Below are positions 3,271 through 57,826 of a stretch of 64,000 nucleotides of DNA, one piece after another. The number at the start of each line of letters is the position of its first letter. Positions within the stretch are counted from its first letter, which is position 1. Source of the stretch: an uncultured delta proteobacterium. Its GTDB lineage: Bacteria > Desulfobacterota > RBG-13-43-22. Below the pieces are notes generated by a model. It was not told where the DNA came from. It ran no database searches and saw nothing but the letters and a program-made list of their open reading frames with translations. Made by a program: the position numbers and the translations under genes. The DNA is taken from positions 1,472,001-1,536,000 of the forward strand of contig CAWBOS010000010.1 of the NCBI GenBank assembly GCA_963790475.1. Direction: 5' to 3'.

Positions 3271-4009
3271 AAATATTCTGGCCATTGCCGCCCGCATTGA
3301 TAACCAGCTTATCGGAGACCGGCGTTTTCTGGCTCTGGCCATTTTTCTGCCGTTGATCATATTTTATCTTTTCAAGGTCTTTATCCGGACCTTGCCGGTT
3401 GCCCTCCTCACCAATCCTCAGGAACTTTATATCATGATCACGGCCTTTATCATTCACTTCACCTCTTATGTGCTCTGTCTGATCGTCATCGTTAGGGAGC
3501 GACGGGATGAAACACTCATCCGGATGTTTGTCAACAACTTCAGCCGCGCCGAGGTCGTCATCGGCTATCTCCTGGGCTATGCCTCCCTGGCCACCCTTCA
3601 GGCCCTGCTCATCATGCTGGAGGTGAATCTACTATTCCATTTGTCTTACGGCTTAAGCCTGATGCTTTCCCTGTTCGTCGTCATGTGGACCCTGTCCATG
3701 ATCTCCATTGCCCTGGGGATCATGGTCTCCAACCTGGCCAGGACCGAAGCCCAGATCTTTCCTTTCATCCCCTTATTTATCCTGACCACGATTTTCATCT
3801 CCGGGTTGATCCTGCCCCTGTCGAGCATCCCCTGGAGTGTGCGCTGGTTGTCCTATCTGATCCCTTTCACCTATGCCCAGATATTGATTAGAGCCATGAT
3901 CGCCGAAGCGGGTGGGCTCTTTTCCCATCTCAGCCGGTTCGGCGTCCTGATTCTTTACGGCTTGGTTCTGTTGTTTTTGTCGAGTATGACTTTGAAGCAA
4001 AGGGAGTGA
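3263..4009 (+). CDS. ABC-2 type permease
   Basis: About six hydrophobic segments, IVRERR motif, overlaps the ATPase stop. Confidence 0.88.
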   Translation: MVRNILAIAARIDNQLIGDRRFLALAIFLPLIIFYLFKVFIRTLPVALLTNPQELYIMITAFIIHFTSYVLCLIVIVRERRDETLIRMFVNNFSRAEVVIGYLLGYASLATLQALLIMLEVNLLFHLSYGLSLMLSLFVVMWTLSMISIALGIMVSNLARTEAQIFPFIPLFILTTIFISGLILPLSSIPWSVRWLSYLIPFTYAQILIRAMIAEAGGLFSHLSRFGVLILYGLVLLFLSSMTLKQRE

Positions 4010-4026
4010 GGATCTTGAAGGAAATA

Positions 4027-4428
4027 ATGAATATCAAACTTAAAGAAATTGTAAAAGTTTGGCCTGATATCGCGCCTATATTTTCTGTGCCGCATAATGA
4101 AAAAGACAACAACAAATTGATTAGTCTCCTTGACAGCCTTATTGACGAAGTCGGGAATAATGAGAACCATTCCTTATCTTCGCTGATGGAGACGATTGGG
4201 AGCCTGATTGAAACCTACGAATCCCAATATATTAAGGAGATAGAGGGTCATCCGATAGATGCTCTGAATGCCTTGATGGAAGAACATGGTCTGAAACAGT
4301 CGGATCTATCTGAAATCGGCAGCCAGGGAGTTGTATCATAAATTTTATCCGGTAAACGTCAACTTAATGTCCGTCAAATAAAAATGTTAAGTAATCGGTT
4401 CCATGTTTCTCCAGCGGTCTTTATTTAA
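4027..4428 (+). pseudogene. HigA-like HTH antitoxin with in-frame nonsense codon
   Basis: ...LKQSDLSEIGSQGVVS-TAA(4339-4341)-ILSGKRQLNVRQIKMLSNRFHVSPAVFI*; the HTH continues in frame after the stop. Confidence 0.8.
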
Positions 4429-4509
4429 AACAAAACAATAAAAACCTTCCTCAAAAGAAGACTTGCTTTTCATTATAGAAGGAATGACGAGAATATTTTC
4501 CCCTTATCG

Positions 4510-4577
4510 GTCACCCCGGCGAAAGCCGGGGTCCAGAAGATATCGAAATGACTGGATTCCGGCTTAGGAGAAATGAC
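4510..4577. repeat. REP-like palindromic element (GTCAyyCCnGCGnAnGCnGGrrTCCAG...CTGGATTCC...ATGAC family)
   Basis: Related copies at 46004-46029 and 49158-49235. Confidence 0.65.
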
Positions 4578-4787
4578 GTCATTGGACTTTTCTAAAAGGC
4601 TCATTTATAATTATTTAAAGAGGATAGGTTGTATTCAGGGTTTGAACCGGCTAACCAAAAATAAATTGTTATGGCTTAGAGATCTAACTTAACCCTTCGT
4701 GTTGTGAAACTATGATCCATATAGGGTAAAGGTTGATGGGCGATGAATTGAGGAGAGGATCAGAAGCTTATTAAAGGAGAATATATT

Positions 4788-4985
4788 ATGGTGAGAATAA
4801 CCGTGGAAATAGAAGACTCAAAGGCAGAATTGTTGCAGAAGAAGGCGGAAAAGTTTGGGCTTTTGCCTGCCCAATTTGTAACCGCCTCTATTGAAGACCT
4901 GATTGGTCAAACGGAACCGGAATTTGAGGCGGCGATGCGCAAGGTCTTGTCTAAAAACAAGGAACTTTACAAGCGGTTAGCCTGA
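4788..4985 (+). CDS. Small antitoxin-like DNA-binding protein upstream of a Doc/Fic toxin gene
   Basis: 65 aa, AAGGAG RBS, C-terminal NKELYKRLA typical of Doc partners, TGATG overlap with the toxin gene. Confidence 0.72.
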   Translation: MVRITVEIEDSKAELLQKKAEKFGLLPAQFVTASIEDLIGQTEPEFEAAMRKVLSKNKELYKRLA

Positions 4986-5203
4986 TGCGCTACCTTTCTA
5001 TCCGCGAAGTTTTTGAACTGCACGAGCGTATCATAGAAACCTCCGGCGGTGCTCGTGGGATTCGAGATATTGGAGCCCTTGAATCTTCACTCAATCAACC
5101 CCGTCTCACCTTCGATCAGGCTGATCTCTACCCCGATGTTGTGACGAAAGCCGCTGCCCTTTGCTTTTTCTTAGTATTGAATCACCCCTTTATTGACGGT
5201 TAA
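4985..5203 (+). pseudogene. Doc/Fic-family toxin truncated inside the Fic motif
   Basis: GIRD.GALES...P...F...DLYP..AA.L...L..NHPFIDG then stop; NKR and the C-terminal helices are missing. Confidence 0.82.
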
Positions 5204-5263
5204 GACCTTCACCGCCTCGTTTCGGTCAGAAAACACTTTTCCTACCTTGTCTTCGCGCCCTGG

Positions 5264-5320
5264 TTTTCTTCTTGACCGTGTCATCTCTTTTCCTTATACT
5301 CTTTTCATCAAAATTGAATC
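5264..5320 (+). promoter_or_regulatory. Repeated sigma70-type promoter module, copy 1
   Basis: TTGACC(5272)-17 bp-TATACT(5295), followed by cttttcatcaaa as in other copies. Confidence 0.7.
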
Positions 5321-5371
5321 GCTATTCATAATATGTTTTTTTGTTACTAGCCGGCACCTAATAGACCTTAT

Positions 5372-6493
5372 ATGGGAGAAATAATTATAAAAGAAGTACT
5401 TACACGGAAAGAGCTTCGTGAATTCATTTTTCTGCCTGAGAAAATCCATAAAACAGAGCCCGATTGGCTTCCTCCTATTTATAGGGATGAACGTTTGCTG
5501 TTTAATAAGAAGAAAAACAAATCGTATAAGTATGCTGATGCACTTTTACTCCTGGCGTCGAAGGATAATAAACCTGTCGGAAGAATTATGGGTATTATCA
5601 ACAAAAGATATAACGCTATCAACAATGAGAATCACGGACGATTCTGTTTTATGGAATGTTATTACGACCAGGAAGTTTTTCATGCCCTGATAGTCAGGGT
5701 TGAGAATTGGACAAGAGAAAACGGAATGAGCAGCCTTGTTGGTCCACTTGGATTTTCAGACAAAGATCCCCAGGGATTTCAGATTGAAGGCTTTGAATAT
5801 CTCCCGTTTATGACCAGCGCAAACAATTCTCCATATATGGCAAACCTTATTGAAGCAGAAGGGTATGAAAAGAAGATTGACCTGGTAAATTACCTCGCCA
5901 AAATGCCTGAGCAGCTTCCTTCGGTCTATGAGAAGGTACTTTCAAGGCTTGAGAAAACTCAGGGATATAAAATTATTGAGTTTAATAAGAAAAAAGAGCT
6001 GAAACCATATATTTTACCTGTTCTCGAACTTATGAATGAGACATTCAACGAGATCTATGGTTTTGTTCCACTGAATGATAAAGAGAAAACTGAATTTGCC
6101 GGAAGATATCTTCCTATCCTCAACCCTGAATTTATAAAGGTGGTGGAAGCCGACGGAGGTTTGATCGGATTTGCAATAGGGATGCCCGATGTTAGCTCCG
6201 GAATTAAAGCTTGCCGAGGCAGATTACTCCCCTTCGGGATATTTAAAGTCCTGAAGGAATCAAAGAGTTCAAAGAAACTGCTGATGATGCTTGGCGGCGT
6301 TAAGAAACCTTACCGGGGTAAAGGAATTGAAGTTCTTATGGGCGTGAAAATTCTGCAGTCAGGCATAAAGCACAAGATGGATGTTATCGACAGCCACCTT
6401 ATTCTGGAAGATAATACCAGGATGAGGTCTGAATATGAGAGAATCGGAGGTCAGGTAGTAAAAAAATTCAGGATCTACCAGAAAGCTTTATAA
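5372..6493 (+). CDS. GNAT-fold, YghO-like putative N-acetyltransferase
   Basis: GRI...I, GPLGFS, N.PY, GV...YRGKG, ILEDN..M motifs; AT-rich. Confidence 0.7.
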   Translation: MGEIIIKEVLTRKELREFIFLPEKIHKTEPDWLPPIYRDERLLFNKKKNKSYKYADALLLLASKDNKPVGRIMGIINKRYNAINNENHGRFCFMECYYDQEVFHALIVRVENWTRENGMSSLVGPLGFSDKDPQGFQIEGFEYLPFMTSANNSPYMANLIEAEGYEKKIDLVNYLAKMPEQLPSVYEKVLSRLEKTQGYKIIEFNKKKELKPYILPVLELMNETFNEIYGFVPLNDKEKTEFAGRYLPILNPEFIKVVEADGGLIGFAIGMPDVSSGIKACRGRLLPFGIFKVLKESKSSKKLLMMLGGVKKPYRGKGIEVLMGVKILQSGIKHKMDVIDSHLILEDNTRMRSEYERIGGQVVKKFRIYQKAL

Positions 6494-6779
6494 ATATACT
6501 TCCGGGAATAAGGAATATCTCCTTCCTATCCAGTTAAATTATTTGATATTTGATTTTAAGATCTGAAAATGAAAAAAAATCCAAGAAACTCCTTAAACTG
6601 GAACCTTGCTATTCTCTTTTGTTTGCTATCCGCTCCCATTACCGGATTTTTGCCTTTATCGAAGACAGCAGTTCTTGTATCATCATCGAAGATCAGATGA
6701 GTATTGAACCTCACATCAGTAAACCAGTTATTAAGATTAGCTGTTAATATCCTTTCATGACCATCTTCTCAAAAAGAAC

Positions 6780-7020
6780 CTTGCGCTCCCTTGGGTTTCT
6801 TGACGTCGATAGCCACGAAATACTTATTCTGGTTGATATAGTATCAGAGCGGATTGGAGTGTTTCCAGAATTTTCCCCAGTAAGTCCCTCCCCGCCAGTA
6901 ATCCCCCTGAAAGGGCACTTCCACCTGATCACTTCCGCCCCGTACTGCCCCAGAAATTTGGCGGCCGTAGGGCCGAAAATTCTGTGGGACAAATCGAGGA
7001 CCCGGATACCGGTCTATCCC
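6780..7020 (-). pseudogene. CoA-transferase family III (CaiB/BaiF) N-terminal remnant
   Basis: GIRVLDLSHRIFGPTAAKFLGQYGAEVI, frameshift, VEVPLQGDYWR, stop, NQNKYFVAIDVKKPKG. Confidence 0.75.
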
Positions 7021-7216
7021 TCTAAATTAGTTTCAGCATTTTTCGGAAATGGCTTGAAGGCCATCCATTGCCTTAGCGGTGGTGTCTAAAAACCTGTTCC
7101 CCTGATCAGGTCTGGCACAGGCTTGGCTCATCGCTTTACGCTCCGGCTCCCAAAGCGATAAGGGCAGCGGGAGTCGGGTAGTGTCCTAATTTGAACGGGT
7201 AAAATTTAAAAAACAT

Positions 7217-8290
7217 TCATTCGGTGGGAATTTCATATTCAGAAGGAGATGGCGAAGGATATTCTACGAATTCCATAACCCTGTCAATCATTTGTTTAAC
7301 GGCCTCATTAGCATTTATTGGGATTATTTCTATGTGTGGGTGTTGTTTTGCAAATACCCGAAAAACTTCATCCGCAAAAGCTTGACCTATAGATTCAACG
7401 TCCCTAAAATCGAATAATACAGTTTTGAAGCGTTCTATTCTTATTAATAGCCGTTTCGCTTGGGATCTGGATATTAATTGTTCATTACCATATTGTGCCA
7501 ACCGAACAGGCACGATAGTTTTTGTAAACCCATATTCATTATCCGAAAATCTATTAAATACTTCTTTGGTTGTTCGTGCCGTATTATTTTTTAATTTCAT
7601 TGTTATATAAGTTCCATTTTGATATTCTGAATTTTGTAATATCCAATCTCCCTCCTTGTCATATGTATGCGAAAGAAAAACTTCACCCGATAAAATACTG
7701 TATTCATCGAACATGCGTGAAGTAAAAAAAATACCCTCTCCAGTATGACGAGCTGGATCAGTTGTCAATTTTCCTTTAGTCAATTCGATTATTGCGTGAC
7801 GCTCATCAAGAAGCCCCAACATGTTTTTAATTTTCGTAAAAATGCCTATTCCATCATCAAGTATATTCATTTTCGTAGAATGTGCGGTTTTAGAAATGAT
7901 AATTACAACACATGTCCCCCCAGAATGATCAATAACATTGTTAAACATTTCCGAAAAACCATAATGCCAAATATCGAGTGTATTCTCTGGCAACTGACCC
8001 AATCGTTGAACTATCTCATTTCTCCATATGACATCTTCTGCACGGTTGTCTTCAAGAGAAAACTTTGCTCTCCAAATTGATTGTGGGTGTAAAGTATAAC
8101 GAACTCCTTGCCCTTTTCCTTTTCGGTCTAAAACTTCTTGTTTTATAAGTTGTTGAATATGTTTATTTACTGCCTGTCGAGAAATATTAAATTCATTAGT
8201 AGTAAGATTAACTATATCTTTTGGATTTGCCTCGACATTTTCAAGAACAAATTCTCTTATTTTTTCACCACGTTTCCTTAATTTTGTCAT
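7217..8290 (-). CDS. HTH + HATPase-like + STAS-like (DUF4325-type) protein, transposon cargo
   Basis: ISRQAVNKHI HTH; EMFNNVIDHS, DDGIGIF, GEGIFF ATPase boxes; C-terminal LISRSQAKR..LFDFRDVESIGQAFADEVFRVF. Confidence 0.8.
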   Translation of the reverse strand: MTKLRKRGEKIREFVLENVEANPKDIVNLTTNEFNISRQAVNKHIQQLIKQEVLDRKGKGQGVRYTLHPQSIWRAKFSLEDNRAEDVIWRNEIVQRLGQLPENTLDIWHYGFSEMFNNVIDHSGGTCVVIIISKTAHSTKMNILDDGIGIFTKIKNMLGLLDERHAIIELTKGKLTTDPARHTGEGIFFTSRMFDEYSILSGEVFLSHTYDKEGDWILQNSEYQNGTYITMKLKNNTARTTKEVFNRFSDNEYGFTKTIVPVRLAQYGNEQLISRSQAKRLLIRIERFKTVLFDFRDVESIGQAFADEVFRVFAKQHPHIEIIPINANEAVKQMIDRVMEFVEYPSPSPSEYEIPTE

Positions 8291-8439
8291 TTTAAAATCC
8301 TTAGAATCTATAATTGACAACCTTTTTTGGAATAATTGTAAACCTTATGGTCTTATTTGTCAACCTTTTGGTTTAAATTAATAGAAGAGCCGGGGAAGGG
8401 ATTGATAAACTATAGAATGGTTTTATGAGGTTATATATT

Positions 8440-8772
8440 TTAGAAAATTTTGTTTTTTTTGACTGATTTACTTTTTGCGTCCTGAACAATTGCCGCCCGT
8501 ACCGCTTTTTCTGGCGAATCTATTTTCCCCTGATGGAGTACCGCATAATATTTTCTCTTTTTTGATCCTTCAATCTCATGGGACCACGCGTAAGCTCGAT
8601 TTGCTGTAGGATGGTTTTGAAGGTCAAAAACCGCGACAATCCCTTCCCAAGCTGTATCGAGGCCAAATTTTTCCACCACTATTACATCCTCGATATAAGA
8701 AGCGCGGCAATTGTGTAATCGTTCAATGGCCCTTTGAAGGTCTTTATTGTTCTGTTGGATCTTCTTTTTCAT
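8440..8772 (-). CDS. Hypothetical protein, transposon cargo
   Basis: 110 aa ORF overlapping the upstream cargo gene; globular-looking core WEGIVAVFDL..HP..RAYAWS. Confidence 0.65.
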   Translation of the reverse strand: MKKKIQQNNKDLQRAIERLHNCRASYIEDVIVVEKFGLDTAWEGIVAVFDLQNHPTANRAYAWSHEIEGSKKRKYYAVLHQGKIDSPEKAVRAAIVQDAKSKSVKKNKIF

Positions 8773-9532
8773 CTTCAATGCTTTCTGGTAAATCCTCCTC
8801 ATTTTCCTGCAAAAATTTTATCAATTTCTTTATTGACTTAATAGTTGTCGGTTGTTCTCCAGAAATTATGATGCGTGCCTTTAACCCTCGCCCAATAGTA
8901 TAAGTTGCAATTTCCCTTTCATCGGGGGGCGCGGTTGTTGGCGCGAGTGTCGTTGTAGTTGGTGTTGTCGATATTGATGTGTTTGTACCTTGCATTGGTT
9001 TCTCCAGTGAAGGGACAGTTTCTACCGTCAAAGTATCCGAGTTCTTCAAGTTAGCAAAATCAATTGTTTTTTTAAAGTCAAGAAGAAAGCCATCCACCTT
9101 ATCAGCGTTAAATCCATAATCCTTTATCAGCCTTACTTTTAGGTTTTGATCTGACGGTAACTGTCCCTTACATTCATTAAATAATTTATCATAAAGTGTT
9201 GGATTTAAAGCTAATTTTTTTATTGTCTTAATATATATCTCGTCAGATGGCTCATGCAACGCTAAATATATCGCTTCATCTGTTAGTATGATATCCTTTT
9301 GTTTCTCATAAATCAAGCCAAATTGTTTCAAGGCAGAAAGCACCCTCCCACCGTAACCACCTATGGTTTTATAACCGAGATGTTCATAGACGACTTTTAA
9401 AGGCATGGGATTGTTAGTATCTTTATTCCACAGAATTTTTGCCTTTTGAATGGCTTCTTCAAGACTAATCATGGGATATCCGGGACTTCGTTTTCCCGCC
9501 TTGCGTTCCTTCTTTTCTTGATCGCTATTCAT
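8744..9532 (-). CDS. Hypothetical winged-helix-like protein (possibly DUF5343-like), transposon cargo
   Basis: RSPGYPMISLEEAI...LSALKQFGLI...ILTD N-domain, Thr-rich linker; GAGGTG RBS. Confidence 0.65.
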   Translation of the reverse strand: MNSDQEKKERKAGKRSPGYPMISLEEAIQKAKILWNKDTNNPMPLKVVYEHLGYKTIGGYGGRVLSALKQFGLIYEKQKDIILTDEAIYLALHEPSDEIYIKTIKKLALNPTLYDKLFNECKGQLPSDQNLKVRLIKDYGFNADKVDGFLLDFKKTIDFANLKNSDTLTVETVPSLEKPMQGTNTSISTTPTTTTLAPTTAPPDEREIATYTIGRGLKARIIISGEQPTTIKSIKKLIKFLQENEEDLPESIEDEKEDPTEQ

Positions 9533-9566
9533 TTCCGCACCTCTCTTTTCTATTGTGTTGGTTGTA

Positions 9567-9669
9567 GTTATAGTCTGCCTGTTCCCGAAAGTCAAGAACA
9601 ATTTTTTACGAACAATAGGATTAAAATATATTAATTTTGTTCTTGACAAATGAATTAGAGTGGTATAAT
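9567..9669. promoter_or_regulatory. Back-to-back promoters inside the transposon
   Basis: Minus strand TTGACT-17-TATAAC toward the cargo; plus strand TTGACA(9643) and extended -10 TGGTATAAT(9661-9669) toward the transposase; 11-bp IR gtcaagaacaa/ttgttcttgac. Confidence 0.65.
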
Positions 9670-9829
9670 TTAGGATTAAAAGATTGAAATTTACTTGGGA
9701 GGGAATGAAATGAGAAGAAAATTAGCCCTTACTGGTCAATCAATCGCCGCCAGTAGGGGCCATAACGAGAAGACCCCAGGTCCGATCATCCTTGGCGGGA
9801 ATAGACTTGGGGTCATGGCGATTCTTAAT

Positions 9830-9898
9830 GGGGCGCGGACTGGTTCCCCTGGAGGCCCTTACAACCAACCAGGCGGGGTTCGACACTCCGGCGCTCCA
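9830..9898 (+). ncRNA. tRNA-like element (7-bp acceptor stem with G3-U70, canonical T arm, atypical D/anticodon arms, no encoded CCA)
   Basis: GGGGCGC/GCGCTCC+A; CGGGG-TTCGACA-CTCCG; inner CCTGG/CCAGG stem. Confidence 0.55.
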
Positions 9899-9967
9899 CT
9901 TAAAAAGTGTTTCAATAACATAACAGACTATTGAGGTTTTGTCAATAGGAGACTTTGAGACTTTGAG

Positions 9968-10783
9968 ATGAACAATTTAAAGACTGAAAAGCAGGAAATG
10001 ATTGTCCGAGGTCTGGTCGAGGGTGCTTCAATACGTAGCTTAGAACGGCTTACAGAGGTCCATAGAGATACTATTATGCGCCTTCTTGTTCGGGTTGGGG
10101 ATTCTTGCGAAAAAATCATGGATTCAACCATGAAAGGGTTAACCTGCAAAAACATAGAGGTTGACGAGATATGGTCTTTTGTCGGCAAGAAGCAACGGCA
10201 CGTTGGCTTAGATGATGATCCTTCTAAGGTAGGTGATTTTTATACCTTCGTGGCCCTTGATTCAGATACTAAACTGATCCCCGCTTATAGGGTTGGGAAA
10301 CGTGATCTTTTCAATGCCCAGGCTTTTATAGATGATTTGGCCTCTCGTCTTAAAAACCGAGTTCAATTAAGTTCAGATAAATTACCCGCCTATGTTGAAG
10401 CGATTGAATCAACCTTTGGGGCCGATATTGATTATGGGCAAATTGTAAAGTCCTACGAGGCCGAACCACTTGGACCAGGTAGATACAGTCCTCCAAGGGT
10501 CGTTTCCGTCCTAAAAGAGTATATTTCCGGTAGTCCTGATTGGAATAAGATATGTACTTCTTATATTGAAAGGTCAAACTTAACAATGAGGATGCAAATA
10601 CGCCGGTTTACCCGTTTAACCAATGCTTTTAGTAAGAAACTGGAAAATCTCAAGGCGGCGGTTGCCCTTCATTTCGCCCATTATAATTTTGTGAGGGTTC
10701 ACGGAACAATCAAGGTTACTCCTGCAATGGAGGCAGGAATCACGGACCATATCTGGTCAATCCGTGATCTCATTTCAAATTAG
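9968..10783 (+). CDS. IS1-family (single-ORF) DDE transposase
   Basis: N-terminal HTH (EGASIRSLER..VHRDT), DEIWSFVGKK, LSSD, TSYIERSNLTMR..RRFTRLTNAFSKK, TPAMEAG; stop codon lies within the right IR. Confidence 0.88.
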   Translation: MNNLKTEKQEMIVRGLVEGASIRSLERLTEVHRDTIMRLLVRVGDSCEKIMDSTMKGLTCKNIEVDEIWSFVGKKQRHVGLDDDPSKVGDFYTFVALDSDTKLIPAYRVGKRDLFNAQAFIDDLASRLKNRVQLSSDKLPAYVEAIESTFGADIDYGQIVKSYEAEPLGPGRYSPPRVVSVLKEYISGSPDWNKICTSYIERSNLTMRMQIRRFTRLTNAFSKKLENLKAAVALHFAHYNFVRVHGTIKVTPAMEAGITDHIWSIRDLISN

Positions 10784-10919
10784 GACACTACCGGGAGTCG
10801 GGGAGGCTTGACTCCAAATCGGTGAAGGCTTATACTTAAAAACAATGCACAACGCAATTTGCGCCCTGGACAGGATGGCGGTTTTCCCGTCTTAAGAAAC
10901 AAAGGTACGAGGTTAGACA

Positions 10920-57212: not shown

Positions 57213-57826
57213 GTCGAGTAGCCCGGGGGAATTTCACCCCCAGGCCCTCACAGAACCGGACGTGACAGTCTCCCGTCATCCGTCTCCTATCATCCAGTTG
57301 CCTTTTATAGCGACCTTTCCTTACCTCTTGGTTCCTCCCATCGCTGGTTGGCCAAAAGGCAAGGACAGATGATTCAACCCCTTCGCTCCATCCCCATTAC
57401 AGAGATTTAGTTGGTCCGTCCCTGTGCCCCGCATCGGTACTCTCATTCTTGTAGGGTCCTCCACTTGAATTTCTCCCTTATCATCGGGACGACAGGTTCC
57501 CACGTTCCACACCAGAGCCTAAATCAGGTTCGCGCCACCTTTATGCCGGATGCCGTCCAAGCAGTAAAACAGGTTCCCCCTGAACTTATCCTGGAGATCA
57601 GTAAGCCCCCCAGTTTTGACATCATCCATTCATTTCGACACCTCAGAAGTAGTTCGCTTGCGCTCGCCTCCCTGATCCTTACCTGACAGGGTCGTGGCCC
57701 TGCCTCTTCCTTAACGCTCACCACCATGGCCCTTTACCATCGCAGCTTAAGGTGGTTTGAAGCCTGCTCCCGCAAGCCGACTTCGAGGGACCTCCCCCTC
57801 ATCTCTTGTGCAGCTTCGTGGCACAC
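57213..57826 (-). mobile_element. ORF-less group II intron (614 nt)
   Basis: 5' GTGTG; domain V GAGACGGATGACGGGAGACTGTCACGTCCGGTTC; domain VI CCTGGGGGTGAAATTCCCCCGGGCTACTCGAC ending in AC; no RT ORF. Confidence 0.88.

Follow-up and report, generated by a model that had tools for sequence, protein, structure and literature searches.

The window analysed here is a stretch of 64,000 nucleotides (nt) from contig CAWBOS010000010.1 of an uncultured delta proteobacterium, and it contains a tRNA-like structure (TLS) of 69 nt on the plus strand, at positions 9830–9898, in the leader of a transposase gene assigned to the IS1 family. Comparison with homologous loci confirms that this TLS is a real, new, and widely distributed structured RNA. 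All of its parts lie on the plus strand. The acceptor stem, GGGGCGC/GCGCTCC (9830–9836/9891–9897), carries a G3-U70 pair and is followed by the discriminator A9898. The D hairpin, GGACTGGTTCC (11 nt, 9837–9847), starts directly after the acceptor stem, without an 8/9 linker. The two halves of the TLS are linked by a 26-nt hairpin, the lower arm (9848–9873), in which CCTGG/CCAGG (9848–9852/9869–9873) encloses CTTACAA, with an internal GG/CC and CCCTTACAA between its strands; the loop CCUUACA falls within 9856–9864. There is no variable loop, and the lower helix abuts the T stem of the T arm CGGGG-TTCGACA-CTCCG (9874–9890). CCA is not encoded at the 3′ end, where the next letters are ACUU. An earlier description made from the letters alone (the sequence-only reading) had listed the acceptor stem, G3-U70, the A discriminator, the T arm, a reduced D region, the CCTGG/CCAGG stem, and the lack of CCA, and each of these features is present where it had been placed.

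A scan of one genome per species provided 80 loci with transposase relatives at 56–83% identity. A covariance model, R1, was built from the upstream elements of 13 relatives, with the window excluded and alignment A3 as the seed. In the 64-kb window, R1 has a single match (9830–9901, 44.4 bits, E = 3e-8 in 442 kb). The TLS precedes the transposase in 35 of the 80 genome loci (E < 1e-4), and two weak matches, L080 and L086 (E = 0.002 and 0.01), were left out of the alignment A5 described below; L007, which is the same DNA as L010, was dropped before counting. Across homologous loci, the TLS lies 31–74 nt upstream of the start of the IS1-family transposase, and the spacers between the TLS and the ATG go down to 24–35 nt. 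Metagenome contigs were scanned with a T-arm/acceptor pattern, and 80 of at least 120 matching stretches were examined; the same TLS, with a transposase homologue 31–63 nt downstream, is found in 22 of these 80. Three more TLS loci were obtained from two contigs of a viral collection and one further genome. In total, 55 distinct TLS sequences are known from at least seven phyla. By record and tree labels, the hosts belong to Thermodesulfobacteriota, Myxococcota, Nitrospirota, Aminicenantota, Nitrospinota, Bacteroidota, and Pseudomonadota, and a weak match is present in Gemmatimonadota.

Among 151 genomes sampled from the window’s own phylum, only three have the TLS. The other 22 genomes of this sample with an R1 match have genuine tRNA genes (Lys, Ala, Trp, and Cys) according to ARAGORN; indeed, R1 cross-matches real tRNA-Ala and tRNA-Lys genes at 37–45 bits. 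No second copy is present in the host genome, where the window copy is unique, and a plasmid collection has no DNA match to 9696–9901. The TLS is thus rare and patchy, as expected of mobile DNA. Two members may be decaying copies: L158:1543–1612 is not followed by a transposase homologue within 1.5 kb, and L212:232–280 has an internal deletion of the lower arm.

Taken alone, the window TLS has a minimum free energy of −29.3 kcal/mol (z = −0.78), a stability matched by 44 of 200 shuffles, so that chance is not excluded from the window sequence by itself. The comparative evidence is of a different kind. A genome of the same genus has a copy 78% identical to window positions 9710–10777, in which G3-U70 is kept and compensatory changes occur in the acceptor, D, lower, and T helices. 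RNAalifold, applied to a MAFFT alignment of the 13 relatives, returns a cloverleaf with compensatory changes in 8 of 19 pairs. Two other MAFFT alignments, A1 (all TLS) and A2 (a 67-nt subset), misplaced the 5′ ends or the loop, and the counts given here use A5, which is fitted to the model and consists of 36 rows (34 distinct). In A5, 88.5% of cells pair, compared with 71.6% in shuffles, and two-sided changes are found in 19 of 23 pairs; any measure was reached by 0 of 500 shuffles, and slid partners pair at 43–61%. The chance origin of the TLS is therefore excluded by comparison. The sequence-only reading had made its proposal depend on structural conservation in homologous elements, and such conservation, with covariation, is seen in the R1 matches, in the paired changes, and across the 55 sequences.

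Standard detectors, which the same reading had recommended as a check, do not call the window TLS as a tRNA, a tmRNA, or a member of any Rfam family. ARAGORN finds 0 tRNA or tmRNA genes in the whole window. At gathering thresholds, the only Rfam match in the window is a group II intron, far from the TLS, with RNA domains at 57213–57800 on the minus strand (RF01999, 106 bits; RF00029, 51 bits). A permissive Rfam scan of 9500–10100 lists solely mascRNA-menRNA (RF01684), at 18.8 bits compared with a gathering score of 42.5, and the tRNA model RF00005 has no match over the same interval at E ≤ 10. The window TLS is not among the 10 matches of the tmRNA model RF00023 in the host genome, where the host’s own tmRNA is found elsewhere at 213 bits. 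On 14 further TLS members, too, all Rfam families stay below threshold. The best scores on TLS members, with the gathering scores after the stroke, are mascRNA 31.3/42.5 (29.6 on another), tmRNA 27.9/47 (18.9 on another), tRNA 25.0/29, and tRNA-Sec 26.8/47. Membership in the tRNA (RF00005 or ARAGORN), tmRNA (RF00023), and mascRNA-menRNA families was accordingly rejected, all scores being below threshold. Membership among the allo-tRNAs was rejected as well, since these require an 8/4 or 9/3 branch and the TLS has an acceptor stem of 7 bp and a T stem of 5 bp. Derivation from the tmRNA of the host or from one of its three tRNA-Ala genes was also rejected, since their sequences differ from that of the TLS.

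The 55 distinct sequences share a clear set of features. G3-U70 is present in all 55, A73 in 54, and U(−1) and C74 in 44 each; ACCA is encoded in 16, and 39 have no encoded CCA. In A5, 98.7% of the cells of the acceptor stem, 97.6% of those of the T stem, and 91.9% of those of the D stem are paired. The D stem is 2–4 bp long, the D loop keeps GG, and the T loop keeps TTCRA (TTCGA/TTCAA). The lower arm, of 7–9 bp, is irregular and 70% paired in the automatic alignment. Selection is thus strictest on the upper half, i.e., the GGGG.../...CUCC acceptor with G3-U70, A73, U(−1), the T loop, and the GG of the D loop. These upper-half parts of a tRNA are those used by RNase P, the CCA-adding enzyme, alanyl-tRNA synthetase (AlaRS), and EF-Tu. 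Since G3-U70 and A73 are the determinants of AlaRS, the family carries the tRNA-Ala identity set, and charging with alanine is predicted only; the earlier view of the element as a tRNA mimic with alanine identity features holds for the whole family. An RNase P substrate has a coaxial acceptor/T helix of 12 bp, an elbow formed by the T and D loops, and a single-stranded 5′ leader, and the enzyme prefers U(−1) and a 3′ RCC. The corresponding features of the TLS family are the 7 + 5 bp, the D-loop GG, the T-loop TTCRA, and U(−1) and C74 at the frequencies given above, and cleavage is likewise only predicted.

The lower loop is a heptamer, N-Y-U-U-A-C-A, throughout the family: position 33 is U or C, followed by U34-U35-A36 and an invariant C37. 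C33 occurs in half of the family, and 18 of 34 sequences have a non-standard pair closing the loop. In the window subgroup, the loop is C-C-U-U-A-C-A, with C33, and is closed by a C-A mismatch, which accounts for the CUUACAA register seen by the sequence-only reading. CUUACAA does match the anticodon loop of the host tRNA-Val(UAC). Yet, that register is not conserved, and the register of pairing is N-Y-U-U-A-C-A with C37, so that the Val-UAC assignment was abandoned. A canonical anticodon loop, with U33, a purine at 37, a closed 5-bp stem, and an 8/9 linker, is not found in the TLS. Judged from these letters, the lower arm is no anticodon arm for decoding, and its probable role is to bind a partner.

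In the window, the TLS is the 3′ domain of a structured leader of ~190 nt that includes two hairpins (P1 and P2) and a pseudoknot. The 5′ domain of this leader (9710–9829, plus strand, as are its parts) is defined by covariation in alignment A6. It begins with the conserved start AUGAGAAGA (9710–9718) and comprises P1 (9725–9735/9750–9760), P2 (9772–9782/9804–9814), both covarying, and a pseudoknot between the P1 loop and a downstream segment (9742–9748/9817–9823), in which four of seven pairs covary. A 6-nt linker, the last letter of which is U(−1), separates this domain from the TLS. A Shine-Dalgarno-like GGGAGGG (9697–9703, plus strand) stands 6 nt before the conserved AUG-AGA-AGA, and in the aligned leaders ATGAGAAGA comes after purine-rich runs of G. 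The 115–126 nt that lead up to the TLS, in 16 relatives as in the window, open with the purine-rich, Shine-Dalgarno-like run and AUG-AGA-AGA and go on to form the two hairpins. A6 contains 16 of the 17 leaders of the window type, L061 having been left out; 95.9% of its cells pair, compared with 82.0% in shuffles, two-sided changes occur in 22 of 29 pairs, and slid controls pair at 32–46%. The fold of 9675–9967 has a z of −2.35. The leader helices hold 28 G-U and only 6 A-C cells, an excess which indicates that the plus strand is the structured strand.

Other relatives have a simpler leader, which consists of a consensus promoter, TTGACA-17-TATAAT, and one hairpin with an A run before it, followed by the TLS. 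Close relatives among the transposases may differ in the type of leader (L012 and L014; L023 and L032), indicating that the leader is exchanged as a module. From −300 to +900 around the start codon, a search for complements of the loop (TGTAA) and of AUGAGAAGA found no site with a conserved position. The AUG-AGA-AGA start (9710–9718) may be a mini open reading frame (ORF) or a ribosome-loading site beside the pseudoknot; on the minus strand, the same positions may be a U-rich tail after the P1 hairpin. The sequence-only reading was correct in placing the TLS in a transposase leader, but it missed the pseudoknotted leader domain, the 3.6-kb extent of the transposon, and the candidate antisense promoter.

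Promoter and terminator calls on either strand are consensus matches only. A candidate sense promoter was read by eye at 9643–9669 on the plus strand; it consists of TTGACA (9643–9648), a 15-nt spacer with TG, and TATAAT (9664–9669), with a predicted start at ~9676, and it is not listed by the promoter scan, which needed a spacing of 16–18 nt. A sense promoter-like site is present within 200 nt upstream of the TLS at 15 of 35 TLS loci. Within 100 nt of the ATG, such a site is found at only 1 of 35 TLS loci, compared with 21 of 41 relatives without a TLS. On the minus strand, a candidate antisense promoter, TTGACA-17-TATGTT with TG (9917–9945, 10 of 12 consensus matches), points into the TLS with a predicted start at ~9910. 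Promoter-like sites of this orientation are found in the spacer between the TLS and the ATG at 16 of 36 loci, compared with 2 of 36 for the sense strand and 4.3% for shuffles; the predicted start is 0–5 nt from A73 in 14 of the 16, and the −35 element is at or near the start codon of the transposase. On the same strand, the hairpin upstream of the TLS is followed by at least five T in 9 nt at 14 of 36 loci. An antisense RNA that covers exactly the TLS is therefore plausible. Relatives without a TLS also commonly have antisense promoter-like sites upstream (15 of 41). At L011–L013, L017, L022, L026, and L036, a TTGACA-17-TATAAT ~110 nt upstream of the TLS overlaps a common AT-rich palindrome of 20 bp and is adjoined by a divergent Gp49-like/HTH gene pair; this arrangement suggests that a cargo repressor may also control the transposase leader.

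The transposase downstream (9968–10783, plus strand, 271 aa) matches Pfam DDE_Tnp_IS1 at 34.2 bits (cut-off 24.1), a match that spans only residues 193–228; the NCBIfam model transpos_IS1 gives 66.5 bits, below its cut-off of 100. Plasmid homologues at 45–49% identity are annotated as IS1 family transposases, and all plasmid matches are below 50%. With this gene downstream of it and the same arrangement in homologous loci, the TLS stands in a transposase leader, as had been proposed, and the transposase is provisionally placed in the IS1 family. Perfect terminal inverted repeats of 17 bp are found at 7177–7193 (left, GGTAGTGTCCTAATTTG, plus strand) and 10776–10792 (right, minus strand), the latter overlapping the stop codon of the transposase. 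The 17-mer GGTAGTGTCCTAATTTG, with 0–2 mismatches, ends nearly all 80 loci at the right, and also at the left where the flank reaches. Direct repeats of 8 bp, GGGAGTCG, flank the element at 7169–7176 and 10793–10800 as a target-site duplication; those of IS1 are 8–9 bp. Together, the inverted repeats and the GGGAGTCG flanks delimit a mobile unit of 3,616 bp (7177–10792), with three minus-strand genes followed by the leader, the TLS, and the transposase, so that the TLS is indeed carried inside a mobile element. A quick IQ-TREE phylogeny of the transposases was made from 79 of 81 rows, two ORFs of less than 230 aa having been dropped. On this tree, the TLS label changes 6 times, compared with 26.6 in shuffles, and 31 TLS bearers fall into a single group of 33 rows, which shows that the TLS is inherited with the transposase lineage.

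Tentatively, and as something possible that is still short of probable, we favour a functional, cis-encoded TLS in the structured 5′ untranslated region (UTR) of the transposase mRNA, which would be processed by tRNA enzymes and whose alanine identity would be read. The primary transcript would start upstream of the leader, which would place the TLS within the 5′ UTR; the sense sites upstream of the TLS, their rarity near the ATG, and the short spacers point to this. RNase P would then cut before G9830, and tRNA 3′-end enzymes after A9898. Such processing would split the leader from the transposase message and set the amount of translatable transposase mRNA, and it may also insulate that message from read-through transcription. 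The resemblance to the mascRNA-menRNA processing signal in Rfam, at 18.8–31.3 bits and thus below threshold, is counted in favour of this reading. Since G3-U70 and A73 are not needed for processing, a reader of alanine identity would also have to matter, in cis or after release; AlaRS probably, or another such reader, would recognise the TLS, whether released or still embedded. An antisense transcript running convergently from the 3′ edge of the TLS may counteract it.

Several points weigh against this proposal. RNase P needs no G3-U70, so that processing alone leaves the most conserved feature unexplained. The window TLS has no CCA, whereas all 50 tRNA genes of the host encode it, which makes maturation to a chargeable end uncertain in this host. 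A clade of 34 intact-looking relatives has no TLS, which is therefore not required for transposition. In the TLS helices, pair 3-70 set aside, G-U cells (36) barely exceed A-C cells (29); the strand asymmetry thus rests largely on G3-U70 together with the loop and end motifs. Finally, the fitting of A5 to the model structure inflates its pairing counts, although the RNAalifold result, obtained from MAFFT only, agrees in direction.

A different use of the same features, which we consider rather unlikely, is that the TLS acts in trans as a decoy that is CCA-matured and either alanine-charged or partner-binding. It would then resemble the tRNA-like domain (TLD) of tmRNA without a tag template, titrating SmpB, AlaRS, or EF-Tu and damping trans-translation. 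G3-U70, A73, and the GGGG/CUCC ends are invariant or nearly so, and no mRNA-processing step requires them; moreover, the absence of the 8/9 linker and of the variable loop in the window TLS, with the lower helix abutting the T stem, is as in the TLD of tmRNA. Weak matches of the tmRNA model on two TLS (27.9 and 18.9 bits, with a gathering score of 47) and TLD-only minis with a tmRNA-like D region, found by the same pattern scan in phage tRNA arrays and metagenomes, point in the same direction. A precedent is available in the part of Hudson et al. (2014, PMC4131195) covered here: mycobacteriophage DS6A carries little beyond a tmRNA TLD, and a similar TLD-only molecule strongly inhibits tmRNA, perhaps through titration of SmpB. 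However, the D region of the TLS is a covarying hairpin and not the unpaired D loop of tmRNA, and the junction motifs of tmRNA are not seen. The window TLS is also missing from the RF00023 matches of its genome, 39 of the 55 copies have no encoded CCA, and a role in cis accords better with the narrow and constant placement of the TLS ahead of the transposase start. In another explanation, to which we give little credence, the region is chiefly a module for sense/antisense control, comparable to RNA-IN/RNA-OUT of IS10, in which an antisense RNA would run from the 3′ edge of the TLS to the upstream hairpin and the cloverleaf would only provide loops for fast pairing. The excess of minus-strand sites over sense sites and shuffles (16/36, 2/36, and 4.3%), their starts close to A73 (14/16), the T-rich tails after the minus-strand hairpin (14/36), and the frequency of A-C cells (29) are consistent with such a module. 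Nevertheless, it does not explain G3-U70, which is an A-C mismatch on the antisense strand, nor A73, the CCA in 16 of 55 copies, the T-loop sequence, and U(−1). Furthermore, the sites also occur in 15 of 41 TLS-less relatives, the leader helices favour the sense strand (28 G-U to 6 A-C), and the promoter and terminator calls rest on consensus.

The remaining explanations are far less probable. For a working suppressor tRNA with alanine identity and the anticodon UUA, which would read UAA stops, the calls of ARAGORN may be cited, as 2 of the 22 metagenome members (L160 and L188) are called tRNA-Stop(tta) with a regular cloverleaf. The findings of Mukai et al. (2017, PMC5389517) on allo-tRNAs, in the part of that paper covered here, also speak for it. 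We nonetheless consider it very improbable: C37 is invariant, the window subgroup has C33, the C-A closing mismatch is found in 18 of 34 sequences, ARAGORN rejects the window TLS and the other members checked, and at the 36 TLS loci no in-frame stop in need of suppression interrupts the transposase ORF. That the TLS is a functionless, decayed fragment of a tRNA or tmRNA, captured or lying beside an insertion, would agree with a single window copy without CCA that is called by no detector and folds no better than shuffles. Since there are 55 distinct copies in at least seven phyla with the fold kept by compensatory changes, and since the TLS lies inside the inverted repeats and differs from the host tmRNA and the three tRNA-Ala genes, this alternative, which the sequence-only reading had put forward as a decayed captured tRNA, is rejected as scarcely credible. 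Least probable of all, to the point of being negligible, is that the stretch 9710–9934 encodes a protein of 74 aa. The frame is open, has an ATG and a Shine-Dalgarno-like site, and begins with three conserved codons, AUG-AGA-AGA. In the 16 related leaders, however, the ORF stops after 3–81 codons and crosses the TLS in differing frames, in the closest relative it stops after 25 codons, the 74-codon ORF has no family match, and the substitutions are compensatory in RNA helices. As neither the length nor the frame of the ORF is conserved, the coding reading of 9710–9934 was rejected.

The three other genes of the transposon are all on the minus strand. The gene at 8440–8802 encodes a conserved protein of ~100–120 aa, which has blastp matches in 44 other loci, both TLS-bearing and TLS-less, and whose homologues usually adjoin the left inverted repeat; it has no Pfam, NCBIfam, PDB, or informative PHROG match. 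It is probably the second core gene of this family of insertion sequences (IS). A cargo ORF of 301 aa (8744–9649), divergent from the leader, has homologues at the same place in 12 other loci and no family match. The second cargo ORF (7217–8320, 367 aa) contains an HTH, a HATPase_c_2-like region, and a STAS-like DUF4325 (Pfam, 63 bits). The transposon lies within a wider stretch of low GC at ~4000–10900, where the GC content is 0.31–0.44, compared with 0.49–0.61 around it. Related transposons (L011, L020, L030, L038, and others) have variable cargo that resembles defence or toxin-antitoxin genes, for example Xre-HTH with Gp49/HigB-like, P63C with Cro-like HTH, Schlafen AlbA_2 with HATPase_c_4, and GmrSD.

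Further tRNA-like minis were also observed. Those of the form GGGGCGC...GCGCUCCA are found 155 nt upstream of a DDE_Tnp_1 transposase ORF (L165:2302–2372) and 377 nt upstream of an IS1595-type transposase ORF (L192:1118–1193). RNAs of ~70–83 nt with alanine-type acceptor and T arms are present at L124:9439–9519, L134:7080–7160, L126:1914–1983, L132:10318–10400, L122/L129, L167, L168, L195, and L218. In several of them, a short helix closes a D region like that of tmRNA; some belong to the tRNA arrays of large phage contigs, and most are not called by ARAGORN. The minis near DDE_Tnp_1 and IS1595 transposases and in phage tRNA arrays hint at a wider class. From this, a more general proposal can be drawn, which we regard as doubtful: several transposon families may carry undescribed mimics of alanine-identity tRNA/tmRNA domains in their transposase leaders. 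Here, together with a pseudoknot domain and an antisense partner, such a mimic would be cut out by tRNA enzymes and then either charged or bound, with AlaRS and SmpB as its partners, and it would couple the expression of the transposase to the condition of the host machinery for translation and ribosome rescue, or suppress that machinery.

No description of the TLS family was found in the literature or in Rfam 15, the supplementary figures of Mukai et al. (2017), which might hold similar sequences, being outside the coverage. A literature search with the 10-mer of the inverted repeat returned only unrelated primer lists. As far as found, a covarying mimic of alanine-type tRNA in the 5′ leader of a bacterial DDE transposase is thus undescribed. 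The TLS is compact (~70 nt, or ~190 nt with the leader) and widespread, and an Rfam model could be based on it as a defined family; it moreover draws attention to a large group of IS1-like transposons with defence and toxin-antitoxin cargo. These observations suggest that such transposons use the tRNA machinery of the cell to control or assist themselves. If the TLS is a processing signal, it would represent a new means by which insertion sequences limit or insulate the expression of their transposase; if it is charged or binds SmpB, it would be a tool of mobile elements aimed at ribosome rescue.

Well-known cases of tRNA mimicry come from RNA viruses, tmRNA, and long non-coding RNAs of vertebrates. 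Among these, mascRNA and the MEN-beta element (of MALAT1/NEAT1, RF01684), which serve as cutting signals for RNase P and RNase Z, are the best Rfam resemblance of the TLS, and like it they are reduced cloverleaves embedded in a longer transcript. Yet, they are vertebrate nuclear RNAs, whereas the TLS scores below 42.5 and is located 5′ of a coding region in a bacterial transposon; to our knowledge, the alanine identity pair is not a defining feature of mascRNA or MEN-beta. In its presumed mode of action, the TLS comes nearest to a tRNA-type processing signal of the mascRNA kind or to a mimic of the TLD of tmRNA. The TLS of plant RNA viruses likewise stands on a selfish element, directly 3′ of a pseudoknotted domain, and looks aminoacylatable. 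It differs in being at the 3′ end of the genome, with pseudoknotted acceptor stems and Val, His, or Tyr identity. What makes RNA-IN/RNA-OUT of IS10 comparable is the candidate antisense promoter, which is internal to the element, close to the start of the transposase, and directed into the 5′ UTR, but the antisense RNA predicted here would cover the TLS and not the ribosome-binding site.

The TLS shares with tRNA-Ala the 7/5 acceptor/T branch, G3-U70, A73, the T loop TTCGA/TTCAA, and the D-loop GG; it departs from it in the lack of the 8/9 linker, the D stem of 2–4 bp, the irregular lower arm of 7–9 bp, C37, U/C33, and a variable loop that is small or absent. Allo-tRNAs have a long variable arm, whereas the TLS family has none. 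Irregular tRNA-like genes of soil and sediment bacteria, some with G3:U70 and the anticodon UUA, are described in the covered parts of Mukai et al. (2017, PMC5389517) and Krahn et al. (2020, PMC7609411), where some are inactive in translation and are suspected to be parts of mobile elements or toxin-antitoxin systems. According to the former, likewise covered in part, allo-tRNA genes are often near toxin-antitoxin systems, and one pseudogene overlaps a transposon-related ORF. The allo-tRNAs of these sources have 8/4 or 9/3 branches, unlike the 7/5 TLS, which accompanies a single transposase family and keeps a fixed distance from it. The closest parallels are the TLD of tmRNA and TLD-only RNAs such as that of DS6A (Hudson et al. 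2014), which have in common with the TLS the alanine identity (G3-U70, A73, and GGGG/CUCC), the T arm, the absence of a decoding anticodon, a lower helix abutting the T stem, and carriage by mobile elements. In contrast to the TLD of tmRNA, the TLS scores below the Rfam tmRNA threshold, has a covarying D hairpin, a 7-nt N-Y-U-U-A-C-A loop, and no tag frame between its halves, and has its fixed place in the 5′ UTR of a transposase, after a pseudoknotted leader.

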